A stretch of DNA of 64,000 nucleotides from a virus: positions 34,692-98,691 of the IMG/VR virus record IMGVR_UViG_3300028048_000053; one strand, given 5' to 3'. Shown here piece after piece: positions 5,064 through 58,505 of this stretch. A model generated the notes under the pieces. It saw only the letters and a list, made by a program, of their open reading frames with translations. It was not told the origin of the DNA and did not search any database. Position numbers and translations under genes: made by a program. Within the stretch, counting starts at the first letter, position 1, and every line of letters starts with the position of its first letter.

Positions 5064-5252
5064 AAAAGGTTGATTGCGCCTTTAGCCAAAAGCAATCTAA
5101 GCCTGTAAAGACAGGCCGGTGGTATCTATACATCCGTTAAACTGGAAGGTTGGCTTGGGAGTGCGACATGTAACTCCATTCTAGCTCGCGAAGGGACGAG
5201 ATATGCGTGTCTGGACGCTAAAGAAACAAGGTTGGCAACCACCAGCTTTTAT

Positions 5253-5324
5253 GTGGCCGTCGTTTAAGAGGTAGGACAGCCCCGCGGTGAGGGGCGCGTA
5301 CGGGTTCGAGTCCCGCTGGCCGCA
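5253..5324 (+). tRNA. tRNA-like element with an aberrant anticodon loop (GCGGTGA, no U33)
   Basis: Acceptor GTGGCCG/TGGCCGC, D-stem GTTT/GGAC with GG in the loop, canonical T-arm ACGGGTTCGAGTCCCGC, no CCA. Confidence 0.3.
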
Positions 5325-5643
5325 AGATTAGATAACGGGTAGCAGCGCCCATAATACTATGAATAGATGATAGATAGTAAATAAAGAGCTGCGTTGATGA
5401 AGTGCTGGTTGTACGTTCTATGCCGAAACGTAGCCGTGGAATGGCCTTTTGGTTATAGGTTTAGCCTCGCTCCCGTGAAGGCGAGGGATGAAAACCTCCC
5501 AGATAGAATCGCTGTAAGAAGGATTCATGTTCAGGTTTTTGTACTTTTTTCACCGAAAAGGCGGTTGGATGAAAAAAGTACGGTTCAGTGAAGCCGCTGT
5601 AACCAGAAAGAAGAGGGCTGCAGACCTCTTAAGTGCGTTATAT

Positions 5644-9637: not shown

Positions 9638-10290
9638 TCAGGGTTGTCCCGAATAATCCCTATCGTCAATTTAAAAGGACAATAGAATTGACACCCCCTA
9701 ACCAATATTTTTTCAATTCACAGTCGTCTGTAAATAACTTGCGACTGCAGAAGAACTCTTAGGGTTGTTCTCAACGAAACATAGTTTATTGGTATAAGAT
9801 TGAGCGTGGTCCCAACACGAAAAGTAGGGATACTGTGGATAGTGATTATTGATTTGATGCTGCGATTAGGGCAGTTTATTGTATACTAGAAATTACAGTC
9901 TTGAAGCCAGACGCACACTCCACCTCTTGTGCGGCCTAATAAATTTGGCGAATAGATTGGGATTGAGTATCCAAAAGAATATGTGATAGGCTGAGGAGAG
10001 GTTAATACCTTGCGGCGAGGCTCATGGGCAACTGTGGTTAGCGACATGGGGTGTAAGCTGAACATATATTACTTGAGGATGCTTAATTTTTTCTCTAATG
10101 TGGCCTGGCCGCAGTCAGACACCTCAATCGTCTCGCCAAAACAAAGTTGACTTTTCAAAATTTTTTTGTTATTATATAGATAAAGATAGAAAAAATCTAT
10201 CTAATTTATATTAGTAAAGGAGAAAACATATGGCTGATGATGCTCCTATATGGAAGATGGCTATGATTTTTTCAGCCATCTTCCTCTCTG

Positions 10291-10335
10291 ATTGATTTTT
10301 ATAAAAAATTATTATATAATAATTATAGAAAAATA
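10291..10335 (+). promoter_or_regulatory. promoter-like repeat copy upstream of the tRNA-Thr/Pro/Gln cluster
   Basis: consensus repeat. Confidence 0.5.
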
Positions 10336-10401
10336 AAGAAGGCGTTTTCAGCAAATATATAAACTTAGCTATTGGGTTATATATAGACGCCTTGTAGAAA
10401 T

Positions 10402-10476
10402 GCTGGTGTAGCTCAGCGGCAGAGCACGCGCCTTGTAAGCGCGGGGTCGAGATCTCGGAATTCTCCACCAGCCCCA
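10402..10476 (+). tRNA. tRNA-Thr(TGT), divergent T-arm, CCA encoded
   Basis: Acceptor GCTGGTG/CACCAGC, anticodon stem CGCGC/GCGCG, loop CTTGTAA; the T region GAGATCTCGGAATTCTC is non-canonical. Confidence 0.65.
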
Positions 10477-10720
10477 TATCACAGCCCTCTTAGCGTGTGT
10501 AAGACCAATAGGATAGAAGCTGGCCGGATATATCAGATTCCGTTTGTAATGCAGGGCCACGGGTGAAGCGGTTGTGATTTTTATACAGATAAAGACTCAT
10601 ACAGCAAATTTATAATATAAAATAAATGTCATTGGTTCGATTCCAATTTTAACAGCTTTTTGTTAAATAGCTCAATCTGGTAGAGCATTATTGTTTATTG
10701 AAAGAGTCTTGATTATATTT

Positions 10721-10796
10721 CGGGGTGTGGCTCAGTTGGTAGAGCGCGTGGTTTGGGACCATGAGGCCGTGAGTTCGAATCTCACCACTCCGACCA
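10721..10796 (+). tRNA. tRNA-Pro(TGG), CCA encoded
   Basis: Acceptor CGGGGTG/CACTCCG, loop TTTGGGA, T-arm GTGAGTTCGAATCTCAC. Confidence 0.85.
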
Positions 10797-10861
10797 CTTT
10801 TTAGACACACACAGCCAATTAAAAAGACTTAAAATCTTTCTATTTAGTGTCTAGTAGATTT

Positions 10862-10935
10862 AGGGGATTAGCGTAATGGTAGCGCGGTGGGCTTTGAACC
10901 CATACGTGGAAGTTCGATCCTTCCATCCCCTGCCA
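10862..10935 (+). tRNA. tRNA-Gln(TTG), CCA encoded
   Basis: Acceptor AGGGGAT/ATCCCCT, loop CTTTGAA, T-arm GGAAGTTCGATCCTTCC. Confidence 0.85.
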
Positions 10936-10938
10936 TAT

Positions 10939-11012
10939 ACCGACTTCGTATAGTGGTAGTACAACGGACTCTGACTCCGTTGGTGGTGGTTCAATTCCAT
11001 CAGCCGGTGCCA
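10939..11012 (+). tRNA. tRNA-Gln(CTG), CCA encoded
   Basis: Anticodon stem ACGGA/TCCGT, loop CTCTGAC, T-arm GGTGGTTCAATTCCATC; one A.C mismatch in the acceptor stem. Confidence 0.75.
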
Positions 11013-11223
11013 AGTTTAATAGAGGTATTCAGGTTGGAAATCTGATATAAATCCTCTAAATATATAACCGATAGGATGTAGGCTTAAAAGCAGCCATCAT
11101 TTAAAGAGTAGGTAATTTCCGCGGCGTTATCTTTTAGCGTAGCAGCACACTATCGACCCGGAGAAGGGGACAACGGGTATATAAATTTCCCTTTCTTATT
11201 TTATGTGAAAAAGGTGAATAAAA

Positions 11224-11571
11224 ATGTTTGATGCTCCGACACTTGATAAGTACGATTTTTATTTTTCCAAGGACAAGCAAAAGGTGATTGCGGTTTCTAC
11301 ATATGCTGGTCGTCCTGTTCGCGGGGTGGCTATTTGCAGTCCAGAAGATACCTACGATGTCTGGTCTGGTAAGGTGCTTGCGGCCGCCCGTTGTAACCAG
11401 AAGGTAGCTGAAAAGCGTCTAAAGCGAGCTGAAAAGAAGCTGCGCGAAGCTACGGCTGCATTTGCCCAGGCACAGAAGTATATGCTCGAGATGAATGACT
11501 ACTATGAAGATGCACGCCGCAGTAACTTCGATGCCAAAAAGCAGGTCAAAAATCTTTTGAATGAAATGTAA
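11224..11571 (+). CDS. hypothetical protein
   Basis: ORF track 115 aa; RBS AAAAAGGTGA. Confidence 0.6.
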   Translation: MFDAPTLDKYDFYFSKDKQKVIAVSTYAGRPVRGVAICSPEDTYDVWSGKVLAAARCNQKVAEKRLKRAEKKLREATAAFAQAQKYMLEMNDYYEDARRSNFDAKKQVKNLLNEM

Positions 11572-11597
11572 TCGTCAGGTAAAAGGAGGAAGTTAAT

Positions 11598-12395
11598 ATG
11601 AAAGATGCTCTTGGCGATCGCATGAAAGGTTTTTATGAAGATCGCTATCGTATCTATCTAACGAGACGAATGCCTGTTATTATCCGCGTTGATGGCAACG
11701 CTTTCCACACTTTTACACGCGGACTTGATAGACCGTTTGACGCAGATTTTATGAAAATTATGCAGAAAACTTGTCTATCTCTTTGCCAGAATATCCAAGG
11801 CTGCGTTGGTGGATATGTCCAGAGCGACGAGATTTCTCTCCTTTTGGTTGATTATCAGACCCTTGAATCTGATGCATGGTTCGATTATAACCTCCAGAAG
11901 ATTACTTCACTTGCGGCCGCCCGTGCCACGATGACTTTTAATGCGCTTGTTAGAGAATTGGTCAATAGATATATCCGTAAAGTAAGCAATGATCCTGACA
12001 TGGACGCAAGAAGATTAAACCTTTGGAGCGAAAAGCAGAATCGTGCTATGTTCGATGCTCGTGCCTTCAACATTCCCAAAGAAGAAGTATGCAACTACTT
12101 CATCTGGCGTCAAAAAGATGCCACTCGCAACAGTATTCAGGCCGCTGGCCAGGCACAATTCTCTCATAAAGAGCTTGAAGGTAAATCTCAGTCTGATATT
12201 CAGGAAATGCTGTTCCAGAAGGGGATTAATTGGAACAATTACACTATCCCCGAAAAGCGCGGCTCTTTTGTGCGAAGATATTTAGAAACTATTGGACAGG
12301 AAGATGGGACACTTACTGTGCGTCGTCCTTGGTGCATTGATGATGAAATGCCTATTCTCACCGAAGATAGAGGCTATATCGAAGAACTTATTTGA
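11598..12395 (+). CDS. Thg1-like protein (tRNA-His guanylyltransferase / 3-5 polymerase family)
   Basis: N-terminal RVDGNAFHTF...PFD motif typical of the Thg1/TLP family; 265 aa; RBS AAAGGAGG. Confidence 0.6.
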   Translation: MKDALGDRMKGFYEDRYRIYLTRRMPVIIRVDGNAFHTFTRGLDRPFDADFMKIMQKTCLSLCQNIQGCVGGYVQSDEISLLLVDYQTLESDAWFDYNLQKITSLAAARATMTFNALVRELVNRYIRKVSNDPDMDARRLNLWSEKQNRAMFDARAFNIPKEEVCNYFIWRQKDATRNSIQAAGQAQFSHKELEGKSQSDIQEMLFQKGINWNNYTIPEKRGSFVRRYLETIGQEDGTLTVRRPWCIDDEMPILTEDRGYIEELI

Positions 12396-12430
12396 AAAAT
12401 TATAAAAAATATTATATAATATATATAGAA
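12393..12430 (+). promoter_or_regulatory. promoter-like repeat copy
   Basis: consensus repeat. Confidence 0.5.
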
Positions 12431-12451
12431 AATGAGAAAGGAAATATTGAT

Positions 12452-12709
12452 ATGAAATATGTCTGTTTCTCTGGTGGAAATGGTTACTGCGGCTGCGACT
12501 ATGAAGATTATGTCGCCATTGCAGACGATACTCCGGAAAGTTGGATAGAACAAATGTCCGTGGAGCGAGCATACGAAAACGCTGAGTCTTATGCTCACGT
12601 TGCTTTGGACGATGATTTCACAGCGGAAGAAGAGCAAGAATATTATGACAACCTCGATTTTGATTGGCACTATGTAACCGAAGAAATCTATTTAGAAAAT
12701 ACAAACTAA
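12452..12709 (+). CDS. small acidic Cys-rich protein
   Basis: ATG 12452 after GAAAGGAAA RBS; the ORF-track extension covers the promoter. Confidence 0.55.
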   Translation: MKYVCFSGGNGYCGCDYEDYVAIADDTPESWIEQMSVERAYENAESYAHVALDDDFTAEEEQEYYDNLDFDWHYVTEEIYLENTN

Positions 12710-12755
12710 TTTGAAAATTTTAAAAAAATATTATATAATATATATGTAAGATAAA
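12710..12755 (+). promoter_or_regulatory. promoter-like repeat copy upstream of the suppressor tRNA cluster
   Basis: consensus repeat. Confidence 0.5.
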
Positions 12756-12868
12756 GAAAGACACAAACAGCAATTTTCAAGGATTTAATTTCAAGGATTT
12801 AGTTTCTGATTAAAAAATTACCTAATAGTGTCTTGTTTGGATAATGGGGGTTGGAGTAACGGTTATGT

Positions 12869-12962
12869 GGCGGGTTCGTTTAACGGTAAGACAGCTGACT
12901 CTAAATCAGTCCATAGCCCCCTGAAGGAGCTTATGAAGGTTCGAATCCTTCACCCGCTGCCA
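12869..12962 (+). tRNA. amber suppressor tRNA, anticodon CTA, type II (long variable arm), discriminator G, CCA encoded
   Basis: Acceptor GGCGGGT/ACCCGCT, D-stem GTTT/AGAC, anticodon stem GCTGA/TCAGT, loop CTCTAAA (U33 and A37 present), 24-nt variable arm, T-arm GAAGGTTCGAATCCTTC. Confidence 0.75.
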
Positions 12963-13017
12963 AAGTCAAAGTTTACTGGAGTTCGTCGTGACTATAACCC
13001 TAAACCAGTAGTCCTAT

Positions 13018-13600
13018 GCGGGTATGGTGGAATGGTAGACACGGCGGACTTTTGTCCCAAGTACAAGGACATGAGCACTAGGATAGGAAACTTCCTAAGT
13101 GAATGTTGGCTAATTCGGCGAAAGTCTCAAGCAGATAACGCCGAGCTAAATTGAATATAGGTGCAACAAAGCTGAAATACAGAGAGGTCGCCTGTAGGTC
13201 TATGGCAGTTGAATAAGCAACTCCGCTTGTATGTATTAAGATTGAGCAGTAGTTGTTAAATGGAGTTAGATGAACAGCCTATACTCATAAATGTGTAGAG
13301 ACTATATACCAACTACCTAAGTCAAACGAGTTAGTAAGGAAACGGCACATTGAGTGGGAGCGTTTGATATGGTAAAGACATAGTCCAGACTACAACTTAA
13401 TAATAAAGCAGGTGCTACGAAGCCATTGACGTAAGTCCTTGTGGAGACTATCGTGGAACTCGAAAGAGCGGAAAGAGAAGCTGTAGTAAATGGAGTTAGA
13501 TGAACAGCCTGCTTTTATGTATTAAGGCTATGGTGACATAGAGTAGTAAGAAAATCCTCTGAGCTGAGCTCGTGCCGGTTCGAGTCCGGCTACCCGCACC
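13018..13600 (+). tRNA. tRNA-Leu(TAA) interrupted by a group I intron in the anticodon loop (exons 13018-13051 and 13550-13600)
   Basis: 5-prime half GCGGGTA-TG-GTG..CAC-G-GCGGA-CTT, 3-prime half AAAA-TCCTC-TGAGCTGAGCTCG-GCCGGTTCGAGTCCGGC-TACCCGC-A-CCA. The spliced loop is CTTAAAA. Confidence 0.75.
13052..13549 (+). ncRNA. group I intron (498 nt, no ORF) within tRNA-Leu(TAA)
   Basis: Inserted after U34 as in the classical tRNA-Leu(UAA) intron; exon ends in U, intron ends in G. R-like element TAGAGACTATA near 13296, S-like ACATAGTCC near 13378, internal 24-nt direct repeat. Confidence 0.7.
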
Positions 13601-13758
13601 ACGTAAGAGCCATACAGCAAAATTTTATTTACAAGATATTTTTTATAGAATTTTGATAAGGATAGTCCAGAGATAGGCTCTTGTAATTAAAAAATCTCTG
13701 GCTGTAAAAGGGAAGTTAGAAATTTGAATAATATTTCTAATTTCCCTATTTTTTATTT

Positions 13759-13835
13759 GCGCCAGTAGCTCAACAGGACAGAGCACGAGATTTCTAATCT
13801 TGGTGTTGAGGGTTCAAGTCCTTCCTGGCGTGCCA
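13759..13835 (+). tRNA. tRNA-Arg(TCT), CCA encoded
   Basis: Acceptor GCGCCAG/CTGGCGT, anticodon stem CGAGA/TCTTG, loop TTTCTAA, T-arm GAGGGTTCAAGTCCTTC. Confidence 0.8.
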
Positions 13836-14186: not shown

Positions 14187-14837
14187 ATGGCATACATCTA
14201 TTTAATCACAAACAAAACTAATTAGAAACAATATGTAGGAAAAACCCAAAATAGTATAGAATAGCGGTGGAAAGAACACTGTCGAGATTATAAAAAGGAG
14301 CATAACGAAAAACGTCCATTGTATGCGGCTATGCGTAAGTATGGTATTGAAAATTTTGAAATTTCATTAATTGAAGAAGTTTCTCCTGAGTAGAACCTTG
14401 AAGAGCGTGAAATTTACTGGATAGACTATTATCAAACTTATAACAAGGGCTATAATGCTACTATTGGAGGAGACGGTAAATCTTTTTTGCCATATAAAAC
14501 TATACTAGAGTTATGGAATCAAGGACTAAATTGTAAACAAATTGGAGAACAGCTACATTGCGATGCCGGGTGGATTGGTGTGATTTTAAAAAGTCATAAT
14601 GTCTCCCCCCAAGAAATTTAGAATAAGTCCTTTGTTGATAAGAAAATTCGAGTTTGTCAAATAGATAAAAAAACAAATTAGATTATAGCAATTTTTCCAT
14701 CCTATAGAAGTGCCGCTCAAGCAATGCTTGATAAAAAATTAACAAATTGTAAAGTTGGTACTGGAGCTGCTCATATAGGAGAAGTTTGCTCAAACAAAAG
14801 AAAGACCTTTGCAGGCTTTAAATGGAAAAAGGCTTAA
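14187..14837 (+). CDS. GIY-YIG homing endonuclease (reads through 5 in-frame TAG)
   Basis: AYIYLITNKTN-TAG-KQYVGKT...RWKEH GIY-YIG motif plus a C-terminal NUMOD-like region; continuous frame from ATG 14187 to TAA 14835-14837. Confidence 0.75.
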
Positions 14838-15346: not shown

Positions 15347-15409
15347 TTCTTGGACAGTTTTAAACAAAATGTTTAATCAAAATTTTATATACAGTAGGAG
15401 GATGACAAC

Positions 15410-15589
15410 ATGACTCTTCAAGAAGTGTGTAAAATTTTGGGAAAGAGTGAAAAAACTCTAATTTATAGTTTTAAAAGAACCTAGTTAAACCTTGCTAAAA
15501 AAGGTATCATCCTTCTAAAAACTGGTGTAGGCAAAAATGCCGACTATCAAATAACCTATGAGGAGAATGATACAAATGAAAAAGGATAA
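15410..15589 (+). CDS. small HTH-like protein, leader of a mobile endonuclease cassette (one in-frame TAG at codon 25)
   Basis: MTLQEVCKILGKSEKTLIYSFKRT-TAG-LNLAKKGII; its paralog at 35500 has a TAG at the identical codon. Confidence 0.5.
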
Positions 15590-17454: not shown

Positions 17455-18426
17455 ATGATTATTTCAAAAGAAAAGCAATAGGAAATTGATAGTTTGTCAA
17501 CTATTTCAATAGATATTAGAGCAAAAGATTTAACTGGAAAAAGACAAGGGTCAATCACGTTTTTAAAGCCAGCAGAAAAAATCAATAAAAGAATTTATTG
17601 GTGGGTGATATGTGATTGTGGTAATATTGAAAAAGTTCGAGCAGATAGTAAAATATAGCGTTGTAAAGAGTGCAATGCAAAAAGAACTGGTGAACAAAAC
17701 AGAGGAAAAAATCTTATAGATTTAACCAATCAAAGATTTGGTAGATTAACAGTATTATTTTTACAAAACGAAAGAAGAAATGGTAATGTTATGTGGCATT
17801 GTAAATGCGACTGTGGTAATGAATGTGATGTTCAATCTACAAGTTTAACAAGTGGGAATACTAAATCTTGTGGATGTTAGAAAAGAGAACGTGCTTATTT
17901 TACGACTTTAAAAAAAGATCTCTCAGGAAAAAAATTTGGGTATTTAACCGTATTAAAAGAAACTAAAGAAAGACAATATGGAGGAAAAGTTATATGGGAG
18001 TGTCAGTGTGATTGTGGTAATATTGTCTATCTCAACACTGGACGTTTAACCAGTGGAAACGATACTTCTTGCGGATGTAAAAAATAGTCAATTGGTGTTG
18101 AAAATATAAAAAATATTTTAAATTAGAACAATATTGTATATAAAAAAGAATACAAATTCAATGATTACTAGGAACGAAGGTATGATTTTGCGATTTTTAA
18201 TAATGAAGGATTGGTAATTCGTTTAATTGAATTTGATGGGGAATAGCATTATAAATATACTGGGGGATGGAATGACCAAAAATCATTAGAAAAAAATAAA
18301 TTACACGATAAAGAAAAAAATGAATATGCTTTGTCTCATAATATTCCATTGGTTCGTATTCCATATTGGAAACGAGATAATATCACTCTTGACATGATAA
18401 TGGGAGATAAATATTTGGTAAAATGA
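17455..18426 (+). CDS. Zn-ribbon repeat plus PD-(D/E)xK (DUF559/Vsr-like) nuclease, about 10 in-frame TAG
   Basis: Repeated W.C.CDCGN....SCGC zinc ribbons, then YDFAIFNNEGLVIRLIEFDGE-TAG-HY (canonical DGEQH). Single frame from ATG 17455 to TGA 18424-18426. Confidence 0.65.
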
Positions 18427-20333: not shown

Positions 20334-21728
20334 TTAGTATTCAACATAGGTATAGGTACTACTGGATGGATAATTTGTTGCGCTGGTATAGGCAGCCAGC
20401 GTGCCAGACGGCACATAAATAACACAGTCGGTGGGTATGCTTGACCAGGTGTTGCGGGATGACGCAGTGGGCGGAGTGGCCGCAACAAAGCGTATGAGAC
20501 GAAGACCGCCACAGGTATAGAACGCACTGCTTCCGATGCTCGTCACACTATCTGGGATTGTTATGCTCGTTAGACAGTAGCAGTTGTAGAACGCACTGCT
20601 TCCGATGCTCGTCACACTATCTGGGATTGTTATACTTGTTAGATTGTAGCAGCAGTAGAACATATTATTCCCAATTCTCGTCACACTATCTGGGATTGTT
20701 ATGCTCGTTAGACTGCAGCCCCCGAACGCACTGCTTCCGATGCTCGTCACACTATCTGGGATTGTTATGCTCGTTAGACAGTAGCAGTTGTTGAACACAT
20801 AGTTCATAATGCTCGTCACGCCGTCCGGAATTGTTATGCTCGTCAAGCTGTAGCAACTGTCGAATGTGTTGGACCCGATGCTCGTCACGCCGTCCGGAAT
20901 TGTCACGCTCGTCAGACTACTGCAGCCCCCGAACGCACTTTCCCCGATGCTCGTCACGCCGTCCGGGATGGTCACGCTCGTCAGACTGCTGCAGCCGTAG
21001 AACGCACTTTCCCCGATGCTCGCGTTTCTGCCGATCTCTACCTTCTGAATGGCATTTTGATATACACGATTAAACTATAAACTTCCGCTGGTCTTCCACA
21101 GCAGTTGAGAGCCGGCGCCGCCTCCAGTAATGCCCAAGCTCCCCGTCACATCGATAGTGATGACATATTTCCCTGGAGCTGGATAGACATGTTGAGTGTT
21201 GATAACGGTGTAGACATCGTTGCCCGTCACGGTATCGGGCTCGCTGTCGTCGCCCCAATCGATCACTGCTGTGCCATTGACAGCTATGCCGAGATAAGGC
21301 TCCAACCGTCCCTCTTCAAGGTGGATATACACCCGTGTCTTGCCATCGTCGGTAACATACATCTGTCCCATCCACAGCTTGCCATACTTCGCCACATATG
21401 CCTGGGCCTTTGCCAACGTCCAGTTCCAGCCTTGCGAAGTCAGCCCCGCGTGGGACGGATTCTCAGGCATCGCCGTAAGCGCCGCAAACTCAGCAGCTGT
21501 ATAACTATGAACAATCGTACCATCGTAGTCGATAAAATTGACATCATTAACCTCAGTTTTGTCACCTCCTCCAGTTGGAACGTTGACAACAACTTCACTT
21601 AGTCCATCATATCCAGCATCTGGCGTGACCGTTCCATTCTGCGTAGTTGTTTTCGTTTGTAGTGTCGCCTGTCCGATGCTGGCGATTGCCGCCGCCATCT
21701 GGGACGGCGTGTAAGTTTGATTAGGCAC
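20334..21728 (-). CDS. tail fibre / receptor-binding protein with C-terminal BspA-type leucine-rich repeats (one in-frame TAG at 21075-21077)
   Basis: GTG 21728 with AAAGGAG RBS; ORFs 21075..21728 and 20334..20975 are in one frame joined through TAG; repeated [22 protein letters not shown]; GC-rich. Confidence 0.65.
20350..20975 (-). repeat. about 8 tandem 69-72 nt LRR-coding repeats
   Basis: Near-identical repeats (GCTCGTCACACTATCTGGGATTGTTATGCTCGTTAGAC...). Confidence 0.7.
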
Positions 21729-21896
21729 TAAATATCACTCCTTTCAAGTCCCTCTGTCGGGCATGGGATGGTGGATCGGGGAGAATAATTTGTGTAATAA
21801 ATTTCAGAATGTCATAGAGTTTGTTGGACATAGTTTTACTCCTCCTCCGGCACGTCCTCAATGTACGGCGAAGCTGTCTCGCTCTGTCCTGCGGTT

Positions 21897-22154
21897 TCAT
21901 TCCGTCACCCCCATTAAGATGTCAAAGCCCTCTGCCTTGTCCTCGGTGGTCGGAACATACGGCTCCGGCGGAATCTCGACCAGTTCCCAAGTCAAGTCGG
22001 TGCGGAGTTTGTAGGCATATCCATCCGGGGCTGTCGGTGCATTCTGAATGACCGTCATGATCTCGTTGTACTCGGATTCCGTGATTTCCGTCTCCCCCGC
22101 TCCGCTCGATATGCTGGCGATAAATCCGTTGTCGATATTCTTGTAATATTTCAC
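21897..22154 (-). CDS. small tail-fibre assembly/chaperone-like protein
   Basis: GTG start overlapping the upstream TGA; 85 aa ending EDKAEGFDILMGVTE. Confidence 0.5.
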   Translation of the reverse strand: MKYYKNIDNGFIASISSGAGETEITESEYNEIMTVIQNAPTAPDGYAYKLRTDLTWELVEIPPEPYVPTTEDKAEGFDILMGVTE

Positions 22155-22918
22155 GCATCATCACCCCAGTAATAGCACTCGATGTTGTACGTTACACCGG
22201 CTGGTGCCAAAAAGTTATTGCCGTTCTTAAACTTTAAAATCCTGTTTTCCAAATCAATATAGTAATCCGTGTTTGCAGTCGCTGCGCCAGCAATGATTTG
22301 CACAAAAGCATTTTTTGACATGCTTCCAGTTGCCTTGTTTCTGTAATTCCCAGCACAATTACATGAATTACTAACAGAGATTTCATCATCAGAAACTGGC
22401 AGTGCAATTATCTGAATTATTTCTCCAAAGGCATAATCAGATAGCACCGTTGCTGGCGTATCGGATTTAATGAAAATAAGTTTAGGGAGATTTGAAGAGG
22501 GGAGCGGGAAGAGCACAGTGTCGACAACATCCGTCGCCGCTGTATATGTTGCGGTAAGTTTTGTAATCCCCGGCACCGCAACGGTCACAAGCGAAAATGC
22601 CTTGCCCGTCTCTTGGTATGTCCCGTTCTGCGTCACGGACAGCGGCTCCACGGTCACAGCGTTTGGGCGTACCTTGGCTGCGTTGATGGCGTCGGCAATG
22701 GCCTCATAGTTCGCAGGGTTGGTCTTGCCTTTGTCAGGCAACGTCGGATTGTCGCCGAAGGCCACAACGTCAACGTCGGACAATTTTTCAATATCACCAA
22801 TATCTTCTGCAAATCCTTCAAAACCGTGATTAGAAGCGTCTATTCCTTGTCCTTCTAAAGCGGTTCTAATATTATCCCTAGCAATTACTAGTCTATGTAA
22901 TTTATCTTCAACACTCAT
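22151..22918 (-). CDS. tail fibre protein (N-terminal domain shared with 29554..30255)
   Basis: ATG 22918 with GGAGG RBS; PDKGKTNPANYEAIADAINAAK resembles PEKGNSNPQYYEDIAKAINEIK of the paralog; ends TGA. Confidence 0.65.
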   Translation of the reverse strand: MSVEDKLHRLVIARDNIRTALEGQGIDASNHGFEGFAEDIGDIEKLSDVDVVAFGDNPTLPDKGKTNPANYEAIADAINAAKVRPNAVTVEPLSVTQNGTYQETGKAFSLVTVAVPGITKLTATYTAATDVVDTVLFPLPSSNLPKLIFIKSDTPATVLSDYAFGEIIQIIALPVSDDEISVSNSCNCAGNYRNKATGSMSKNAFVQIIAGAATANTDYYIDLENRILKFKNGNNFLAPAGVTYNIECYYWGDDA

Positions 22919-23112
22919 AGGACTGCCTCCAATACTTTTTCTATATCTCCAATAGTATCCCGTAGTGGCGAAACAATGCTTTCAGCATCGACTATATACA
23001 AGTCGTCCTTATCATACTCAACTGTTTTCCCATTAACCGTGATAGTTTTATTAGCTAGTAATTCTTCTTTCTAATCTTTGGTTAAATATATTATCCTTTT
23101 AAGCGTTGACAT
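22915..23112 (-). CDS. small hypothetical protein (one in-frame TAG); its TGA overlaps the next ATG
   Basis: ATG 23110-23112, 66 codons. Confidence 0.35.
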
Positions 23113-23116
23113 TTAT

Positions 23117-23299
23117 TTAACCCCCTTTTAATTTTAAATATTCTAAAAGAGAATACTCATCTTCATCGTATTCTCTTCCTTCGTGACCTTCAGAATCTGT
23201 TATTGTTTGTATATTATATCTTTTATACACCGTATCATGGTTTATTTCAAACTCTTTAACGTCTCGAGGGCCACAATGCACTTTTTCTCTATGAATCAT
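23117..23299 (-). CDS. small hypothetical protein (60 aa)
   Basis: ORF track; RBS AAAGGA upstream; TAA stop. Confidence 0.45.
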   Translation of the reverse strand: MIHREKVHCGPRDVKEFEINHDTVYKRYNIQTITDSEGHEGREYDEDEYSLLEYLKLKGG

Positions 23300-23392
23300 A
23301 ATATTTTTCCTTTCTATTTTTTAGATGTAAAGGATTGTGGTTTTTATCCCGTCTTAGTTATTATTAGTTTTTAATCTAGAAAAATAAATAAC

Positions 23393-24979
23393 TTAATGGA
23401 AAGCGAGGCGACCGCCCAGACCCGAATCCCGAACAGAGGGAAGCCAAAACACATCCAAGTAAAAGACCCCCGCATTGTCAAGCGCGCCGTAATCGCCACC
23501 AAACACAGCCGAAAAGGACGGATAGACCTCGCCGTAGTCAGCGAAATAGGTACTTGTAGATCCACTATCGCTTTCGTCATAAAAAGGTATAAAACCTGTA
23601 ATAGTTGTACCAAAAATATATCTAATATACTGACCGTAGCTACTAATATTACTGTTTTCAACGGTAATGGTATTTACCTCTGCGCCAGAAGAATCGACCA
23701 CTTCACTAATAATCAGACCATTATTTTCATTGGTGCGTAATCCTTCGACCCAATCATAAATGTTGCCCCAAAAATCTTCTATACCAAATAACTTCATACG
23801 ATTAAGGTTATTATTTTTTGTTCCATAGCAGAAACCTAGAGAATCTGTGGCTCCTGTCATTTGAGCTGTATAACCACCACTGCTTCCATCAGTATATCCG
23901 CCTCCAAGAGCGGCTTGAGAATTTAGATTGCCATACTTAATCAAGTATAGACACTACAATGCCGTAATATGATAAAATAGCTGTTGATAATAGCCTGCGC
24001 CATTTGCGGTCGCCGCGGCACGGAATTCGGTGAGGTTTTCACTTACTGTTGGAGTAACTCCAGAAATTGACCGTAACTTGCCCGTATTCTCGTCTATATA
24101 TCCTTTATAAGCACCTTCATACCAATGTTCACCAGTTAGCTCGGTCCAGTTGCTATATCTTTCATCCGATACTTTTGGGTCATTGGTAATAGAAACATAA
24201 ATATCTGTACCGTCCTTATAGATACGGTATTTAAAATTAGGAAATTCTATCATTACATCTCCATCAGTACCATCTAATACTGAAGTGGTACCATCTGCTT
24301 TTTTAGTATAGTCATTGCGGTCTAGATAATACACAACCTATCCTTTGTTGAATACACAAGGTTTAATATCCGCAAATATTGGCATACTATCCCAGTCGTC
24401 ACTACCCTTGGTCATACCAACTGCATCATCCATATAAGTACAGCAAGTATCTGGATTGCTCATTGTGTTATCTATTTTAACAGTATAGGTTACATAAAGA
24501 CCATCAACTAAATTTATTAGCTCTATTCCAGTATCATCATTCTGCGCTGTTCCAGACTCTGAGAACGCAGAATCTAGTGTGGCCGCAGACTTGTTAATAA
24601 AAATATTTCTTCCGCCATTTAAATCGACTAGACAGAAAGTAATAATAGATGAACCATCTAATGAACTCATATTAACAGTTCCAAATAGAGCTTTATTATC
24701 TATTGTATTTATATACTTCAATAAAATTTCATTGTTGATGTACAAAGAAATTAAGTTACTATTTGCAATATTTTGCTTAATGGTAGATATTTCATCTTCT
24801 GGAAGAGTCATATCATATTCAATATCTAAAATATCAAGTATATTAGCTAATTCATTATCTTCAAAACTAGGATGGATAGCATATATCATACCACTATTTT
24901 CGATATTAATCTAAGTCTATAATTCTCTTACACTGGTTTTAATATTGCTAGAACACAATGCATAAGTTATTAAATCCAT
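23393..24979 (-). CDS. large structural (tail/baseplate-like) protein assembled from three ORF-track ORFs through 4 in-frame TAG
   Basis: ATG 24977-24979 with AAAAGGAGG RBS; TAG at about 24915, 24909, 24338 and 23954; ORFs 24338..24889, 23954..24334 and 23393..23944 share one frame; ends TAA 23393-23395. Confidence 0.55.
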
Positions 24980-25085
24980 TTTTATCCTCCTTTTTTAAAC
25001 TTTTCTTGTTAAATATTTGAAAAGAAACCAGCAAGAGCAACCCACAGCTTCCTCGAAGTGAGCTTTCTTTTCCAGTCAATCATGA

Positions 25086-26207
25086 TTATTCCTCCTCAAT
25101 GCGAGTGATGATGAGATCGTAAGAACTTTGGCCAGTTATCTGAGAAAGTTGCTCGTCAGAAATAATACTCCACTCTCCAGTAATACCATTGAAAAGCGTC
25201 ATAGCACAAGCAATTGAGTTATCATCCCCGACATAAAGAAATACCACGCTGAGTGTCAGGTTATTATCAATGCTATTATTGCTAGCACATAACATGAGCG
25301 AACGAGGTTCGTCATCAACCATTAGCGGGCTCATAAAACCCTTTATGGTTGTGTTCGTCCCCATACCTATAGAGATAGCAGCAGAAGCCTTACCCGAATA
25401 GATATCACTGATAAGCTCTTCAAATTTCTCCTTAGTATATCCATTATCGTTAAAGATCGTGCTAAGCGGTCCGCTAATAGTTTCCGTGGTAACCTTAGCG
25501 CCGCCAGAGGGCTCTACGCCTTCATCCATATAGTAGAAGGTGAAACGGAAACGACCTAAATTATCGATATGATCCTGATCGATAATAGTTGGGCTACCAT
25601 TCCTATTGATATAAGCAAAATATCCAAGCGCAGAAGATTTGGTTAGCCGCACTACTATGGATGCGCCCACATCCACCCAAAAACTGTTTTTAACATGATC
25701 TATGTACTCGGCTTCATCCGAAAAAGTCTTATTCCACTCAGAACCGGACATATCAAGCATATCACTATAAGCTACTCCGAATGTTCCTGCGCCAAAAGCG
25801 AAGAATCCGGGATCAGTGTCCTCCGGCGGAGGAAGATAAATCATTCCCATTTTAGTCTCGGCCATCTTTTCATCTGTTGCAGCAAGACTTTGCGCAACGC
25901 CAATGGCCCCCGCGTCCAGAGCAGCACCATATTTCTGAATGTTTTCAAATGTTAGGAGCTCACTTAACAAGCCCTCATATACTTCCGTCCGAACATTACC
26001 CGGTTTTTGCGTTCTGGTTTCTCCAGTGCCATACTCAATCCATTCTTCTCTACCTAAATCAAAAACACATCTTTTACCAGTATCTATTTCTATTAATTCA
26101 CTACCATTGGCTATGTTCTCAACAGGTTTTTCATCATCAGAGGTACAAATGCCTTTTCCAAATTGCTTATTATCTATTGATTTTCTTAATGTCTGCCAAG
26201 TAATCAA
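25086..26207 (-). CDS. structural protein (373 aa, no TAG)
   Basis: ORF track; ATG adjacent to the upstream TAA; TAA stop. Confidence 0.6.
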   Translation of the reverse strand: MITWQTLRKSIDNKQFGKGICTSDDEKPVENIANGSELIEIDTGKRCVFDLGREEWIEYGTGETRTQKPGNVRTEVYEGLLSELLTFENIQKYGAALDAGAIGVAQSLAATDEKMAETKMGMIYLPPPEDTDPGFFAFGAGTFGVAYSDMLDMSGSEWNKTFSDEAEYIDHVKNSFWVDVGASIVVRLTKSSALGYFAYINRNGSPTIIDQDHIDNLGRFRFTFYYMDEGVEPSGGAKVTTETISGPLSTIFNDNGYTKEKFEELISDIYSGKASAAISIGMGTNTTIKGFMSPLMVDDEPRSLMLCASNNSIDNNLTLSVVFLYVGDDNSIACAMTLFNGITGEWSIISDEQLSQITGQSSYDLIITRIEEE

Positions 26208-26208
26208 A

Positions 26209-27786
26209 TTAATTATCTCCTTTCATCATCTTTTTAATCTCTTCCAAAGCTGCATAAACAACTCCAGAAGTAACGAAGTTGTCACTGTCAGGGAGCGGCA
26301 CGGAATCTAGCATAAAATATATCCCCGTATCTCCTACCAGTTTCCACTCTTCATCTATATACATAAATTCATTATATGAATTATCAGAAAATTTTTCTAT
26401 CATATAAATAGTGTTAGTATCTATATCTTCTGTAGGAAGATTTATAACTACCTTGCGTTTTAGAAGGCCAGAAGCTGCGCTAGATAATGCAGTCTATACA
26501 AAAGCTGTAGTTGCAATTTGCGAGTTAGAAGTACCAAATTCTGCTGTTGGCGCAAGCGGCACTCCAGTAAATTTAGGACTTTCTATTGACGCTTTATCGC
26601 TAATATCCTAATGGGAAGTCAAATATCCCATATCATTATCAAAATCCGAAATTTTAGTAGGTTTATTTAATATTTCTCCCATTCCAGAAGTAGCGTTCCA
26701 ATCACTCTGAACTTGCGGCAACGGGATGCTTAATAGCACCTCTCCAGTTTGCCCATTAACGCTAGTCACTGGCGCTTTATATTTTACATTACCAGACTAT
26801 CCATTAAATGATTTAACATATTTCGTAGTATCTGGCAACGCCCCAACCTCATTAGCTGTATACCTTGGTTTAGTGGGTTCTTTAGCCCAAGATGGCACCG
26901 TAGGGTCGGTTTCTATAAAAGAGGTTAAATAACCAACATCATTAGTAAAATCTGAAAGATTGGTTGGTATCATCGGCTTGTTACTTAAATCATTATAGTC
27001 TCCAGTAGTAGCTACATTGGCCAACCTATCTGCTAAATGTTTTGCGGCCCCAGCCTCATCGAACTCTTCAACTGAAGCAAAGGCAGCGGAACCTAGACCT
27101 GCGACAGGAACATCTTCTCCAGCCACCTCTATTGTTCCTTCTTCAGTTCCGGTAGTTATATCCGCCGGCTGGAGAGCGCTATCCGCACTCTCCAAGCTAT
27201 TTTGCACTTCCTGTGAGAACTTGTCTTTAGTTATACTACCGCGCAAAATACTAGCTGATACGGTCCCATCTGCGAAGACCGCAATCTATATGGCATCTTT
27301 TCGTTTGCTACCGGAACTTATATGATTAATTAAGCTATCTACTAGTATATACACATCAGACTTGGGAACATTTGCTAGGACTAGGTGGAGATATACTCCA
27401 GCCTAGCCCCATGTCCCAGCCTCGGATTTTATATCTATAAACCCATTTAATATCTCCATACCTTTTGGAATATTAATGGGAACTCCTATCGTTTGCCCAT
27501 CTTTGGTTAGTTGATAAGAAGTCAAATAGTTATCATCAGAAGCCAATTCTTTTATATTATAAACAGGATAAATTGTCTATGGTACATATAAACCATCAGC
27601 TTTTAGTTCTAGGGCATTACCCTCGTCTTGAGATCTCGAAATAGCAATGGTTGGCTCCATCTCTGTGCCAGATATTGCGATACTTGAGTTGGCGGCCGCA
27701 AGTTTATCAACCCGACCCTTTTTACTTAACTCAAATTTAATTTTCTGCCACAGTTTTGCTACTCCATTATAATCTAAAAATTTCAT
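26209..27786 (-). CDS. tail fibre with NKP..SDF.ND.GY repeats (6 in-frame TAG)
   Basis: ATG 27786 with AAGGGGG RBS; one frame through TAG at 27577, 27403, 27286, 26797, 26608 and 26494 to TAA 26209-26211; motifs LSNKPMIPTNLSDFTNDVGYLTS and ILNKPTKISDFDNDMGYLTS. Confidence 0.6.
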
Positions 27787-27799
27787 TTACCAACCCCCT

Positions 27800-28000
27800 T
27801 TAACTATTAAAAATAGCGTCTAATTCTTGGTTGGTAATTTTTTCAATGTTTGTATTAAAATAGGATTCTAAATCTTCTTGGGTTAAAAAAAGATTTGCGT
27901 TTTTTATATCCTAATCCTATAATTTGCTAACTATTAAATTGTTAATATAGTTTAATAGTTCTGCTATATCTGTTGTTTGCATAATTATTTTAATCTCCAT
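27800..28000 (-). CDS. small hypothetical protein (2 in-frame TAG)
   Basis: ATG 27998-28000 to TAA 27800-27802, 66 codons; weak RBS. Confidence 0.3.
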
Positions 28001-28050
28001 ATTTTTTGCCCATTCCGCATATATCGGGCATTCTTAAAATATTGCTCCTT

Positions 28051-29538
28051 TCACGCCCATGTGACCCCACCATCCGTGGTGCTGATGGCGGTTTCCTGCC
28101 CGTAACCGGTTTTTGTGATCAGCGTTGCGTGTCCGATTGGCCCGTCGTAGTTCTCCAGTGTGCGCACGGTGCTGGCACTGCTTCCGTACTGCGCTGTGTC
28201 TGCCTGGACGCTCTGGACATGATCGCCGCAATGCAAATACAACATATTGTACCCGAACGTGTTGCTGTAGCAGCTGTCCCCGAAGGTGTTGCTGTAGCAG
28301 TTGTACCCGAACGTGTTGCTGTTGCAGCCGTTCCCGAAGGTGTTGCTGTAGCAGGAGTCCCCGAAGGTGTTGCTGTAGCAGCCGTACCCGAACGTGTTGC
28401 TGTTGCAGTTGTACCCGAACGTGTTGCTGTAGCAGCTGTCCCCGAAGGTGTTGCTGAAGCAGGAGTCCCCGAAGGTGTTCATCCAGTTGTGCATCCCCAG
28501 CCTGTTTCCGGAGATGTTGTTCCAGCCTTTGGAAGAAAGCTTCGCCGTAAACACGCTGTTGGTCTCCCACACGCTGCCCCCCAGGCCGAAGACGTTATAC
28601 GCGCCCTGCATCATGGCAATCAGTGGTTCCGTCTCCAGCTCGATGTAGTTCTCCCGGCACGGCACCTTGGCAAGCCCGTTGAAGCTGGCGTCAACGTGGG
28701 CGCTCTCATCGGCGTCGTAGTAGTCGAAGGTGTAATACCAATCGGCCCCGAAGGTGCTGAGATACTGCGCGTTCGGTTCCGCAAACTGAATTGCGCCCAG
28801 GATATTCGCGCCTACAGCGAAGTCGTAGTCAGCCACCGCGCTGTCTACGCCTTTGTACTGGTGAAGGTACGGGTTGACGTAGCTCCCGGCGCTCATATAC
28901 GCTTGCAGGGCCGTAAAGAGCTGATACATTCCGCCGTATCTGTTCGGCTGCGTACTGGCGTCATAGGCCAGCTTACCGTCAGCGGGTGGCGTATAGTCCC
29001 CCTGCGCGTCCGCCACCTTCAGCGCATAGCGCAGGAAGCGGATGTTCTTGAAGTCGTATCCCACCCGGTTGTTGAACTCGTCCTCCATCCAGAAGATGAC
29101 GCCCTTTCCGTTGGCGTTGGCCCAGGCGTAAGTGGCCTGGTCGTTGTCAAGGCAGTATTTCAGCTTCCACGCCCCGATGGCGCTGTTGGCGAAATACGTG
29201 TCCCCCTCGTGCAGAGCCGCCCGTGCGTTCTCGTTCAGATGGCTCTCGTCGTCTGCGGTCACAATCACGTCAAAGGGGTGGCTTTCCGGCACCCCCGCGT
29301 TGTGTAGATACCCCTGCGCTCCTAGGGTGCTCAAATCGTAGCTACCTGTGATGACTGTCTCATAGTCCGTAATGCGGTACTACATTCCTGGCACGAGGTT
29401 GCCCCCGTCCCGCAGAGCCTTCAATTCCGCCCAAGTGGTCTCCGTCATAGGCTCCACTGTGGCTGTGGGTGTTTCAACTTTAGTTAGTTCTTTTATTGCA
29501 TTAGCCATCTCAGATGGCTTTAAATTATCAATAGCCAT
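28051..29538 (-). CDS. tail fibre protein with about 12 tandem NTFG(D/Y)(S/N)C(Y/N)S nonapeptide repeats (one in-frame TAG at 29380-29382)
   Basis: ATG 29536-29538 after AAAGGAG RBS; in frame with ORF 28051..29334 across TAG; ends TGA. Confidence 0.65.
28250..28480 (-). repeat. 27-nt tandem repeat array (about 9 copies) encoding the NTFGxxCxS repeats
   Basis: GTTGCTGTAGCAG(C/T)TGTCCCCGAAGGT-like units; other-frame ORF-track ORFs 28034..28570 and 28125..28457 are artefacts. Confidence 0.75.
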
Positions 29539-29553
29539 ATTGTATTACTCCTT

Positions 29554-49378: not shown

Positions 49379-50691
49379 TGGACTATACTGCCAAAGATAT
49401 AGTTTCTCTATCTGCTGGAAGAGCTTTTCGTGAAAAATTAGGTATGTATCTTTCCGCTGATAAACAGGAAGCTATTAATTTAGGATTAAGAGAATTAATT
49501 GTAAATGTTCAAGATGAATATGAGGTTTACAAACCAAGTAATCCAAAACTTATAATTACACTCGATACCAAATCCCACGAAATAAATGTAGAAGATAATA
49601 TGCGCGGAATCCCAGTGGGTTTGCGAGAAGATGGAATTAATTCTTTAACTGCGGCATTTCTTATTCCTCATTCAGGAGGAAAACATACTGAAGGAGTTTA
49701 TTCAAGCGCTGTTGGTATAAACGGAGAAGGAAACAAAATTGTATGCCACACAGCAGAATGGCTCGAAGTTGAAGTTCATAGAGATGGAAAGATATATAGA
49801 CAACGCTTTGAATCAGACGACGAAGGCGCTCATGCAATGTCAGATGTGACAGAAACACAACCAGTTAGTGGCACTGGAACTTTTATCTCATATAAGCCAG
49901 ACCCAAAGGTATATGGAGATATTTTTATTGATATAGATGCTTTACGAAAAATGCTGCATGAAATGTCTATGTTCTCTACTGGACTGAGAATTGAGTTATG
50001 GGTAGATAATAAACCTGAAATTTTTTATTCAGAAAGTGGATTAATTGATGGTTTATCTACCGAAAATCGACTTTCAAAACCATTTTCTTATTATTATGAA
50101 ACTCCTGATTGTAAAGTTGAATTAGCTTTACAATGGGTAAGTAAAAAGGGTGAAATTAGAGGTTACGCAAATAATCTTTATATGCCCGACGGAGGAGCTT
50201 TTATTACAGGATTTAAATCTTCGCTAACAAGAACTTTTAATTCTCTTGCTGGAGAAAAATTTGATAGCGACGCTATTAGAAATGTTTTAGACGGCTTTGT
50301 AAGTGTAAAAGTTAAAATGGGACAGTTTACGAATCAACAAAAAACAGCTTTAGCCAATCCAGAAGCACGAACAGCCACTTCAACAGCCATTTCTAATGCT
50401 TTAAAAGAGTATCAACATGACAGACCTAAAGACTTTGCGCAAGTCGTCGAATTACTTACTAAACTCTCGCGTGCGGAAGCCGCTGCCGAGAGAGCGCGTA
50501 AGCAAGTCTTAGAGGCTACTAAAGACATTGAGCGAAATCAGAAGAAGAAGGTCTTTGCCAGTGATAAGTTAAAAGATGCCGAATATTTAGGTCAAAATTC
50601 AACCCTCCTTATAGTGGAAGGAAATTCTGCTCTGGGCGGAATGGCTCAAGCAAGAGACCCTTCAAAATTTGGCCTTCTGGCAATTAGGGGT
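49378..50691 (+). CDS. DNA topoisomerase II large subunit (T4 gp39/GyrB-like), exon 1
   Basis: GyrB ATPase region ending at the conserved ..GLLAIRG|K site; the stop TAA immediately after belongs to the intron. Confidence 0.7.
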
Positions 50692-52483: not shown

Positions 52484-52493
52484 GGAGAATTAA

Positions 52494-54839: not shown

Positions 54840-55018
54840 ATTTAAAAGATTTTTGTTTTTATAAAAATCAATTTGAAGAGTTAAAACAAGTTGTAGAGGA
54901 ATACCCAATAACAATGGAACAAATCGTTTTGTGTGCAAAAGAGCTTGGCAAAATCGCGGAGTATGGTAAACTTGGGGTTTACTATCACATATTGTTCGAT
55001 GGCGCTCACTCAACTTGA
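54836..55018 (+). CDS. small hypothetical protein
   Basis: ORF track 60 aa, ATGA overlap with the topo gene. Confidence 0.4.
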   Translation: MNLKDFCFYKNQFEELKQVVEEYPITMEQIVLCAKELGKIAEYGKLGVYYHILFDGAHST

Positions 55019-55158
55019 ATAATTAAAAAATTTTTTATATAATAATCGTAGATTAAGGAGATAAAAATTCTTTATAAAAAACTAATGGAGAATGGGACGA
55101 AAATGATTAATTTATTATTAACATTTTTCATATAATTATGAAAGGTGATGATAATAAA

Positions 55159-57847: not shown

Positions 57848-57901
57848 CAAAAAAATTTTTTATATAATAAAAATGTAAAAAATGAGGATGAAAAAAATTA
57901 A

Positions 57902-58087: not shown

Positions 58088-58139
58088 TTTTTTTACAAAA
58101 AACAAAATATTTTATTTATTAAAAGGAGATTATGTAATT

Positions 58140-58406: not shown

Positions 58407-58505
58407 TTTTAGGCCAAAAGCTGTTAGTTTATATTTTATAAAACCGATATTATATCGGGAGGAATTTTCTTCCTCCCGATAATTTATATATGGAGGCTTT
58501 GTAAG

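Follow-up and report, generated by a model that had tools for sequence, protein, structure and literature searches.

What amino acid, if any, is placed at UAG when a reading frame runs through it, and which tRNA places it there? The question is raised by a 64,000-nt stretch of viral DNA (IMG/VR record IMGVR_UViG_3300028048_000053, positions 34,692-98,691; hereafter the window, numbered from its first letter). An earlier note had proposed that the amber codon TAG is here reassigned to glutamine (Gln) and read by a dedicated phage tRNA with anticodon CUA, encoded at 12869-12962. The observation is real and the interpretation is confirmed as correct in substance, for a phenomenon established since 2014-2022: crAss-like, Lak, Agate and further phages of the gut recode TAG to Gln, as in genetic code 15 (Borges et al., 10.1101/2021.08.26.457843; Peters et al., PMC9523058, the latter with LC-MS/MS). 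The window is very probably a fragment of a large, tRNA-rich phage with a code of this type, in which TAG would be read as Gln and of which the host is probably found among gut Clostridia.

The evidence that TAG is a sense codon comes first from 35 curated genes, taken as those with Pfam or homologue support. In these, TAG occurs in frame 81 times, TAA and TGA not once, in keeping with the earlier description of frames that continue through TAG and end at TAA or TGA. In the +2 frame of the same genes TAA and TGA are both commoner than TAG, and in the +1 frame TAA is. The fraction of the window lying in open reading frames (ORFs) of at least 200 amino acids (aa) rises from 0.35 under the standard code to 0.61 when TAG is read as sense, as the earlier note had expected of such a comparison; controls with TGA or TAA as sense give 0.40 and 0.50. 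In a greedy ORF set, TAG occurs in 34 of 73 ORFs. Domains recognized by Pfam run through TAGs (PhoH, PIN, NAGPA, Amidase_2, RNase H and GIY-YIG), and related contigs (L001, L002, L123-L205) align across 58 TAG columns.

Could these frames instead be decaying pseudogenes, mostly of selfish endonucleases, or errors of assembly? Homing endonucleases, a class of gene prone to decay, account for many of the TAG-rich genes, and the gene at 59432-60259 is apparently disrupted by insertion of a homing-endonuclease gene. However, TAA and TGA are absent in frame and commoner off frame (TAA than TAG in both off-frames, TGA in one), which rules out both the decay of pseudogenes and random error. Essential genes, for lysis and tail fibres, are affected as well, the ORF lengths of the TAG genes equal those of full-length homologues, and the same pattern recurs in independent contigs. 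We give this explanation almost no weight.

It is somewhat less far-fetched, and still improbable, that TAG is mainly a stop with partial suppression, such that the TAG-rich genes are mostly truncated and read-through serves as attenuation. The host presumably has release factor 1 (RF1), and no release factor 2 (RF2), RF1 inhibitor or synthetase gene was seen among the annotated genes of the 64-kb window; phage RF2 genes are known in only a few lineages (Borges et al., 10.1101/2021.08.26.457843). Against partial suppression, single genes contain up to nine TAGs, some at catalytic or strongly conserved residues, and with 50% suppression at each site less than 1% of the protein would be full-length. 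No termination-context bias is seen, the +4 base being no different after TAG than after Gln codons (p 0.24), and all 14 TAGs in genes shared with a 97% identical relative (L296) are conserved.

To read the residue at TAG from homologues, window proteins with TAG written as X were compared by tblastn with about 2.9 Mb of DNA, the subject codons being read directly and subject TAGs being excludable. Opposite window TAGs, the commonest entries in syntenic relatives are Q, K, TAG, N and E. A Codetta-like column test was run on those TAG columns, 36 in number, that hold three or more homologue residues, TAG cells excluded. It gives Gln +15.8, lysine (Lys) -10.5, arginine -25.8 and serine (Ser) -43.3, with Gln best in 963 of 1000 bootstraps, and thus picks the residue that the earlier note had expected homologues to show. 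In 36-column subsamples the same test returned the correct amino acid for 53 of 53 testable sense codons in every replicate. An empirical profile test places Gln first in both directions, leading Lys by 27 and 2.6 nats and Ser by 51-102. Individual conserved positions can be followed in five of the genes:

44461-45774, plus strand: PIN-PhoH gene with 5 TAGs (Pfam; PDB 3B85).
17455-18426, plus strand: PD-(D/E)xK homing-endonuclease-like gene with 7 TAGs; TAG 18244 at the Q of DGEQH.
55138-55935, plus strand: PD-(D/E)xK homing endonuclease with 9 TAGs; TAG 55774 at DGKQH.
58506-59435, plus strand: PD-(D/E)xK homing endonuclease with 7 TAGs; TAG 59256 at DGEQH.
60355-61275, plus strand: GIY-YIG homing endonuclease with 6 TAGs; TAG 60451 at YIGQA.

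The PhoH codon at 45631-45633, in the context GDEKT-X-VDL, corresponds to the Q of GD-ITQVDL in PDB 3B85 (GD..Q.DL in the family), and five relatives have CAA or CAG there. The TAGs of the three PD-(D/E)xK paralogues (DGE/K-X-H) stand opposite Q in 119 of 119 database homologues; in bacterial-genome DNA, 12 of 19-22 homologues have CAA or CAG in the DGExH column, and 2 have TAG. The TAGs at 15648 (YVG-X-TS) and 60451 (YIG-X-A) belong to GIY-YIG genes. All TAG coordinates quoted in the earlier note are in frame and in the peptide contexts it gave, and TAG does fall on conserved Gln in PhoH and in the DGEQH motif of the nucleases. Four independent lines (Pfam, relatives, the column test and conserved Gln positions) support a predicted reading of TAG as Gln with a phage-encoded tRNA(CUA).

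The tRNA itself has an unusual form, and three features describe it:

12869-12962, plus strand: amber-suppressor tRNA(CUA), 94 nt (ARAGORN; Rfam RF00005).
12901-12903, plus strand: anticodon CTA, which reads UAG.
12911-12934, plus strand: class-II-like variable region of 24 nt, a hairpin with 12915-12919 paired with 12926-12931.

Its Rfam RF00005 score is 53.3 bits (E 1e-8; gathering score 29). It has a 7-bp acceptor stem, a 4-bp D-stem, a 7-nt D-loop containing GG, the T-loop TTCGAAT, canonical acceptor and T stems (7/5), an encoded CCA, and the anticodon loop CUCUAAA (C32-U33-CUA-A37-A38). The earlier note was right that a tRNA with a CTA anticodon and a U33/A37 loop lies in the tRNA array; it overlooked that this is not an ordinary 75-nt tRNA and is atypical, being 94 nt long because of its variable arm. 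That arm folds into a hairpin of 5 bp, from which one A bulges out, and its loop reads CCUGAA (UGA at 12922-12924), so that the short variable loop of 4-5 nt of class-I architecture is not what is found. Beyond the arm, the rest of the molecule looks like a class-I, Gln-type tRNA, and its D-loop has 7 nt, as in the two phage tRNA-Gln genes at 10862 and 10939. The tRNA exists and, from its sequence, looks functional. HDV-like (hepatitis delta virus-like) or theta ribozymes have been reported at the 3' end of phage suppressor tRNAs; here no Rfam match with E<=5 was found in 12400-13800, though Rfam may lack the family.

The tRNA(CUA) carries about half of the published bacterial Gln identity set; that set comprises G73, U1-A72, G2-C71, G3-C70, G10, U34, U35, G36, A37 and U38 (PMC9976931 Table 1). 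The discriminator G73 is present (tRNA position 91, just before CCA), as are G2-C71, G10, U35 and A37. The first pair is a weak G1·U72 wobble in place of U1-A72, the 3-70 pair is C-G in place of G3-C70, A36 is obligatory for reading UAG, and position 38 is A. Among isotype profiles, which are rough (400 phage tRNAs, anticodon masked), Gln is best with 32 bits, and Ser has 25. A tyrosine (Tyr), leucine (Leu) or Ser origin of the tRNA was considered and is disfavoured by the profiles and the D-arm, which favour Gln; the TAG columns reject all three residues.

Several observations weigh against reading TAG as Gln through this tRNA. Lys is the runner-up, and Gln is only 2.6 nats ahead in the reverse-direction profile test. 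The margin for TAG in the column test, 26 nats, lies below those of all 53 control sense codons, of which CAA has the lowest (33.7). The count of 119 of 119 is circular if taken alone, because the public collection translates TAG as Q for at least some such contigs and did so in the 97% identical homologue P0017; public protein sets mix such translations with real Gln and are therefore not independent evidence for the code. Five of seven bacterial Ser determinants are present in tRNA(CUA), which leaves its identity ambiguous from the tRNA alone. The distribution of TAG among genes, described below, tracks base composition, so that gene history, rather than regulation, is possible. Finally, of a genome that probably measures 150-200 kb, 64 kb are visible, and a further suppressor tRNA, RF2 or synthetase gene could therefore lie outside the window.

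Two of these points lead to other amino acids. If TAG encoded Lys or another polar residue, it would explain that Lys is commonest opposite TAG in several alignments, that it follows Gln so closely in the reverse test, and that the D-arm of tRNA(CUA) is like that of phage tRNA-Lys. Yet Lys is a common residue anyway in this AT-rich genome. The column test puts Lys 26 nats below Gln (best in 35 of 1000 bootstraps), the strongly conserved TAG positions are Q, not K, and the tRNA has G73 and C34/A36, where bacterial Lys identity rests on A73, U34, U35 and U36 (PMC9976931). This makes a Lys code very unlikely. The chance is slimmer still that the long arm makes tRNA(CUA) a substrate of seryl-tRNA synthetase (SerRS), with TAG read as Ser or ambiguously as Ser and Gln. 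Bacterial Ser determinants are G73, C72, G2-C71, R4-Y69, C11-G24, a large variable region and G30-C40 (PMC9976931), and Ser identity is independent of the anticodon. The five present are G73, G2-C71, R4-Y69, the large variable region and G30-C40; position 72, however, is U, and U11-A24 stands in place of C11-G24. The G1-C72 pair conserved in bacterial tRNA-Ser is absent from 12 of 12 members of the long-arm family described below, the D-loop is of the small class-I type, the isotype profile ranks Gln above Ser, and Ser is far behind Gln in the TAG columns (-43.3 versus +15.8). As a prediction, Gln is thus well supported, with Lys a weak runner-up and Ser, Tyr and Leu rejected.

Is the long arm peculiar to this tRNA? 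A first scan of IMG/VR, which used the anticodon arm alone, recovered eight further long-arm genes among CUA tRNAs, and a second scan brought the family to 18 loci, mostly in contigs of 80-170 kb, with 12 different sequences that are 89-97 nt long. In all 12 the 1-72 pair is weak or mismatched (U-A, A-U or A·C in the other members), the discriminator is mostly G73, the D-loop is small, and the variable region of 21-27 nt forms a hairpin of 3-6 bp with UGA in the loop; the loop UGA is unbiased for the first nine sequences only, as the second scan required it. Arm structures were taken from per-sequence folds, MAFFT losing register between the stems of two subfamilies. On three contigs a long-arm suppressor occurs together with one of class I. 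The closest relatives of the window phage (L123-L127, IMG/VR contigs of 55-200 kb, with a Thg1 gene 76-80% identical to that of the window) have ordinary class-I tRNA(CUA) genes of Gln type, one or two each and 74-77 nt long, mostly in the same place directly after Thg1. Judging from this layout, the long-arm tRNA may have replaced, in the window phage, class-I suppressors kept by these relatives at the same locus.

A long arm need not block glutaminyl-tRNA synthetase (GlnRS), since mutants of the E. coli su+3/supF tRNA-Tyr(CUA) with a weakened 1-72 pair or G73 are charged with Gln. No description of long-arm phage suppressors was found in the searchable literature, of which coverage is incomplete, and a long-arm, Gln-type suppressor family with a UGA loop is an addition to the known pattern. 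One possibility, which we consider doubtful, is that the long-arm tRNA(CUA) forms a distinct, specialized class of phage amber suppressor, in which the arm is a handle for a dedicated partner and UAG decoding is conditional or ambiguous, in place of plain supE-like suppression. The partner could be a factor encoded by the phage, a modification enzyme or a second synthetase, for example SerRS; shielding from defences that target tRNAs is another candidate role. Long arms also occur on normally class-I tRNAs of related phages: Ile(tat) of 95 nt (L127 3051-3145), Thr(tgt) of 84-86 nt (L126 2342-2425; L127 7857-7942) and Ala(tgc) of 98 nt (L078 503-600). The arm may therefore be a broader quirk of these phage tRNAs.

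A separate type of class-II tRNA(CUA), of 84 nt and with A73, was seen in other IMG/VR contigs (L017 6864-6947, L022 7214-7297 and L040 687-770). Its Tyr isotype profile scores 46 bits, with 27 for the next best, so that it resembles a supF-like, tyrosine-type amber suppressor. It would imply TAG to Tyr, a reassignment not reported in phages by Borges et al. (10.1101/2021.08.26.457843).

How is TAG distributed among the genes of the window? Its density is heterogeneous among the 35 genes (chi2 152.7, df 34, p 6e-17), and by gene class it falls out as follows:

Lysis: 19.1 TAG per 1000 codons, 39% of Gln-type codons.
Homing endonucleases: 16.4 TAG per 1000 codons, 35% of Gln-type codons.
Tail-fibre-like: 5.8 TAG per 1000 codons, 22% of Gln-type codons.
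Replication: 1.5 TAG per 1000 codons, 4% of Gln-type codons.
RNA repair: 0 TAG per 1000 codons, 0% of Gln-type codons.

Recoding is thus a gene-specific mosaic and not window-wide. The earlier claim that every standard-code ORF call is fragmented does not hold, as 16 of the 35 genes are TAG-free, among them the largest (818, 781 and 639 aa). The regions and genes that make up the mosaic, besides those listed above, are:

45816-46667, plus strand: NAGPA and SPOR cell-wall hydrolase (lysis), 7 TAGs.
46674-47555, plus strand: Amidase_2 endolysin, 4 TAGs.
14187-14837, plus strand: GIY-YIG homing endonuclease, 5 TAGs.
20334-29544, minus strand: tail-fibre-like module, within a tail-fibre region of 20.3-30.3 kb.
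20334-21728, 23393-24979, 25086-26207, 26209-27786 and 28054-29544, minus strand: tail-fibre-like genes with 1, 4, 0, 6 and 1 TAGs.
30798-43631, plus strand: almost TAG-free block with CAG-rich larger genes, including vault-like, RNA ligase, SPFH, kinase and phosphatase genes.
49378-57847, plus strand: TAG-free replication genes GyrB-N, GyrB-C, GyrA/ParC and NAD ligase, interrupted by homing endonucleases.

In the block 30798-43631, TAG occurs only in a homing-endonuclease gene of LAGLIDADG type at 35669 and in the small gene upstream of it (TAG 35572). The TAG-rich genes use CAA and TAG with hardly any CAG, which fits an AT pressure that turned CAG into TAG. Among the larger genes without TAG in the tRNA array and at 30-42 kb, most are rich in CAG, the vault-like gene having 1 CAA and 29 CAG. 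So clean a separation of CAG-rich, TAG-free genes from those with CAA and TAG goes beyond the known pattern.

The tail-fibre module also holds a misleading frame: the longest ORF, 28006-29523, is a spurious plus-strand reading of a low-complexity repeat, the real gene being 28054-29544 on the minus strand (497 aa, tail-fibre-like, with SNTFG repeats and 1 TAG).

The window contains at least ten homing-endonuclease-like genes, of HNH, GIY-YIG, LAGLIDADG and PD-(D/E)xK types. A 5.1-kb contig, L296 (ENA ERZ1029115), is 97% identical to window 56063-60202 and lacks both the PD-(D/E)xK gene 55138-55935 and the GIY-YIG gene 60355-61275 (junction regions 55068-56063 and 60202-61460), for which reason both endonucleases are taken as recent insertions. 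The GIY-YIG insertion cuts the resident gene 59432-60259, which has coiled-coil and GIY-YIG domains and is intact in L296 (329 aa); no group I intron was found around it, in 60202-61460. These recently mobile endonucleases carry 6-9 TAGs each and would therefore be expressible only with a suppressor, inside the gene pool of recoded phages. Such heavy recoding of demonstrably mobile homing endonucleases goes beyond what is known.

Two paralogous genes of about 58 aa, 15404-15583 and 35500-35670, were called helix-turn-helix genes in the earlier note, which rightly placed a TAG at codon 25 of each (15482 and 35572). A homing endonuclease directly follows each of them, GIY-YIG from about 15590 and LAGLIDADG at 35669-36520, and the two small genes look like part of a mobile cassette.

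When would the suppressor be made? One feature upstream of it bears on this:

12711-12739, plus strand: sigma-70-like promoter (TTGAAA, 17 nt, TATAAT), 130 nt upstream of tRNA(CUA), of inferred function.

It belongs to a repeated element, TTGAnnnTTTwTAAAAAAATATwATATAAT, of which at least 13 copies lie on the plus strand, the majority within the tRNA array or the 30-42 kb block that is free of TAG:

2172, 3120, 3562, 3835, 5870, 10292, 12392, 12711, 30549, 33606, 38338, 41567 and 55015, plus strand: copies of the promoter element.

The element is also multi-copy in related phage loci and probably represents the family of early promoters in this group of phages. We propose that UAG serves as a Gln codon in a subset of genes, with termination only at TAA or TGA, and that its decoder would be the phage tRNA(CUA) at 12869-12962. 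This tRNA would be transcribed from its own sigma-70-like promoter, inside a tRNA array compatible with the standard code. Charging would most likely fall to the Gln system of the host, either GlnRS or non-discriminating glutamyl-tRNA synthetase with GatCAB, because of the weak 1-72 pair, G73, G2-C71, G10 and U35; the tRNA would then compete with host RF1 for UAG. RNA-repair genes, with no TAG, and replication genes, with almost none, would be translatable upon DNA entry, and the TAG-rich lysis, tail-fibre and homing-endonuclease genes would yield full-length protein only after the suppressor tRNA has accumulated. The timing, the charging enzyme and any role of the variable arm are inferred; the gene layout fits a model already published (Borges et al., 10.1101/2021.08.26.457843), which makes late, lysis and selfish genes depend on the suppressor and keeps the tRNA and the early genes readable under the standard code.

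To what kind of phage does the window belong? ARAGORN finds 16 tRNA genes on the plus strand between 340 and 14113, in an array that includes the Thg1-like gene, and by Pfam the window holds a further module of uracil-DNA glycosylase, RNase H, gyrB split by a GIY-YIG gene, GyrA/ParC, NAD-dependent ligase and a thymidylate-synthase-like gene. Megablast of a 24-kb query against 50,697 GenBank phage records gave zero nucleotide matches, and an exact-sequence look-up of the window RNA ligase protein returned no record. The best ligase matches, in Clostridium phage c-st and unannotated human-faecal phage contigs, reach at most 41% identity, and L002, a 128-kb IMG/VR contig, is syntenic with window 36.5-57.8 kb. 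The lineage is without close GenBank relatives, and recoding of the code-15 type is already known. Of the earlier comparison with crAss-like and Lak phages, the code-15-type reading of TAG stands, and kinship is not shown, there being no GenBank phage match by megablast and no hallmark capsid or terminase gene in the window. Homologues of the PD-(D/E)xK endonucleases lie mainly in Clostridia genomes and metagenome-assembled genomes, with CAA/CAG codons there, which makes a Clostridial host likely, if unproven.

Several smaller observations concern the tRNA array and the neighbouring genes. At 13018-13601 (plus strand) a group I intron, about 500 nt long, splits a tRNA-Leu(UAA) between positions 34 and 35 of the anticodon, the classic cyanobacterial position. 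The intron scores 46.1 bits with Rfam RF00028 (E 3e-10), slightly below the gathering score of 50, and the exons 13018-13051 and 13551-13601, joined in silico, give ARAGORN an 85-nt tRNA-Leu(taa); the split gene had been overlooked by ARAGORN and by the Rfam gathering scan. Pieces of this intron occur at other suppressor-tRNA phage loci (L063, L289, L294, L097, L109, L071 and L102). An additional tRNA at 10402-10473 (plus strand; Rfam 49 bits, loop CUUGUAA, Thr-UGU-like, with an odd T-loop) has no ARAGORN call, and tRNA-Thr(ggt) at 5252-5325, called by ARAGORN, is not reported by Rfam. The gyrB gene is in two parts, N-terminal 49378-50697 and C-terminal about 51944-52483, separated by a TAG-free GIY-YIG gene (50870-51823), an arrangement shared by the standard-code relatives L203 and L204. 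Standard-code relatives were reached with a query joining three TAG-rich proteins, which had low sensitivity (16 matches, all intein-containing PhoH). PIN-PhoH of related phages, standard-code and recoded (P0001-P0016; L203-L205 around 10001-12310), has a LAGLIDADG intein and a product of about 770 aa; the window PhoH (437 aa) has no intein.

Among known systems, the window is like the code-15 gut phages in its in-frame TAG as Gln, its phage-encoded suppressor tRNA(CUA), its AT-rich genome, and a clustering of recoded codons in the genes for lysis and structure, the early genes remaining readable under the standard code. It differs in that its homing endonucleases are recoded as heavily as the lysis genes, and in a suppressor with a class-II-like long arm and no RF2 or synthetase gene in the window. 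A near parallel is the gut phage phAss-1 (proposed Phassvirus), whose genome of about 136 kb is rich in tRNA genes, two or three of them tRNA-SUP-CTA; about 28% of its ORFs contain TAG, alignments point to Gln, and a dedicated synthetase is lacking (PMC10607447; Babkin et al., 2023). By comparison, the window shows one suppressor gene only, of the long-arm type, and has no megablast match; the phAss-1 paper makes no mention of a variable arm (PMC10607447).

The long-arm family resembles class II tRNAs (Ser, Leu and bacterial Tyr) and allo-tRNAs in its variable region of 21-27 nt with a 3-6 bp hairpin. Unlike class II tRNAs, it has a small class-I D-loop, no G1-C72 and UGA in the arm loop, and TAG columns that misfit Ser, Leu and Tyr. 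In E. coli, supE is a tRNA-Gln amber suppressor with anticodon CUA, and the mischarging mutants of supF are laboratory mutants of host tRNAs. The window tRNA shares with such suppressors the CUA anticodon, the weak 1-72 pair and G73, which in them direct glutaminylation by GlnRS; it differs in being a natural phage gene, with a Gln-like D-arm, an added arm and a charging that is predicted from sequence.

In practical terms, the window contig and its relatives need annotation with translation table 15; without it, the genes for lysis, tail fibres and endonucleases are broken into fragments. An inexpensive, testable lead for work on tRNA identity and for the engineering of orthogonal amber suppressors is offered by the long-arm, Gln-type suppressor family. 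For the biology of these phages, the mosaic of a TAG-free early block with TAG-rich late and selfish genes fits a gating of late expression by the suppressor tRNA, and extends that model to homing endonucleases that are mobile between near-identical phages.

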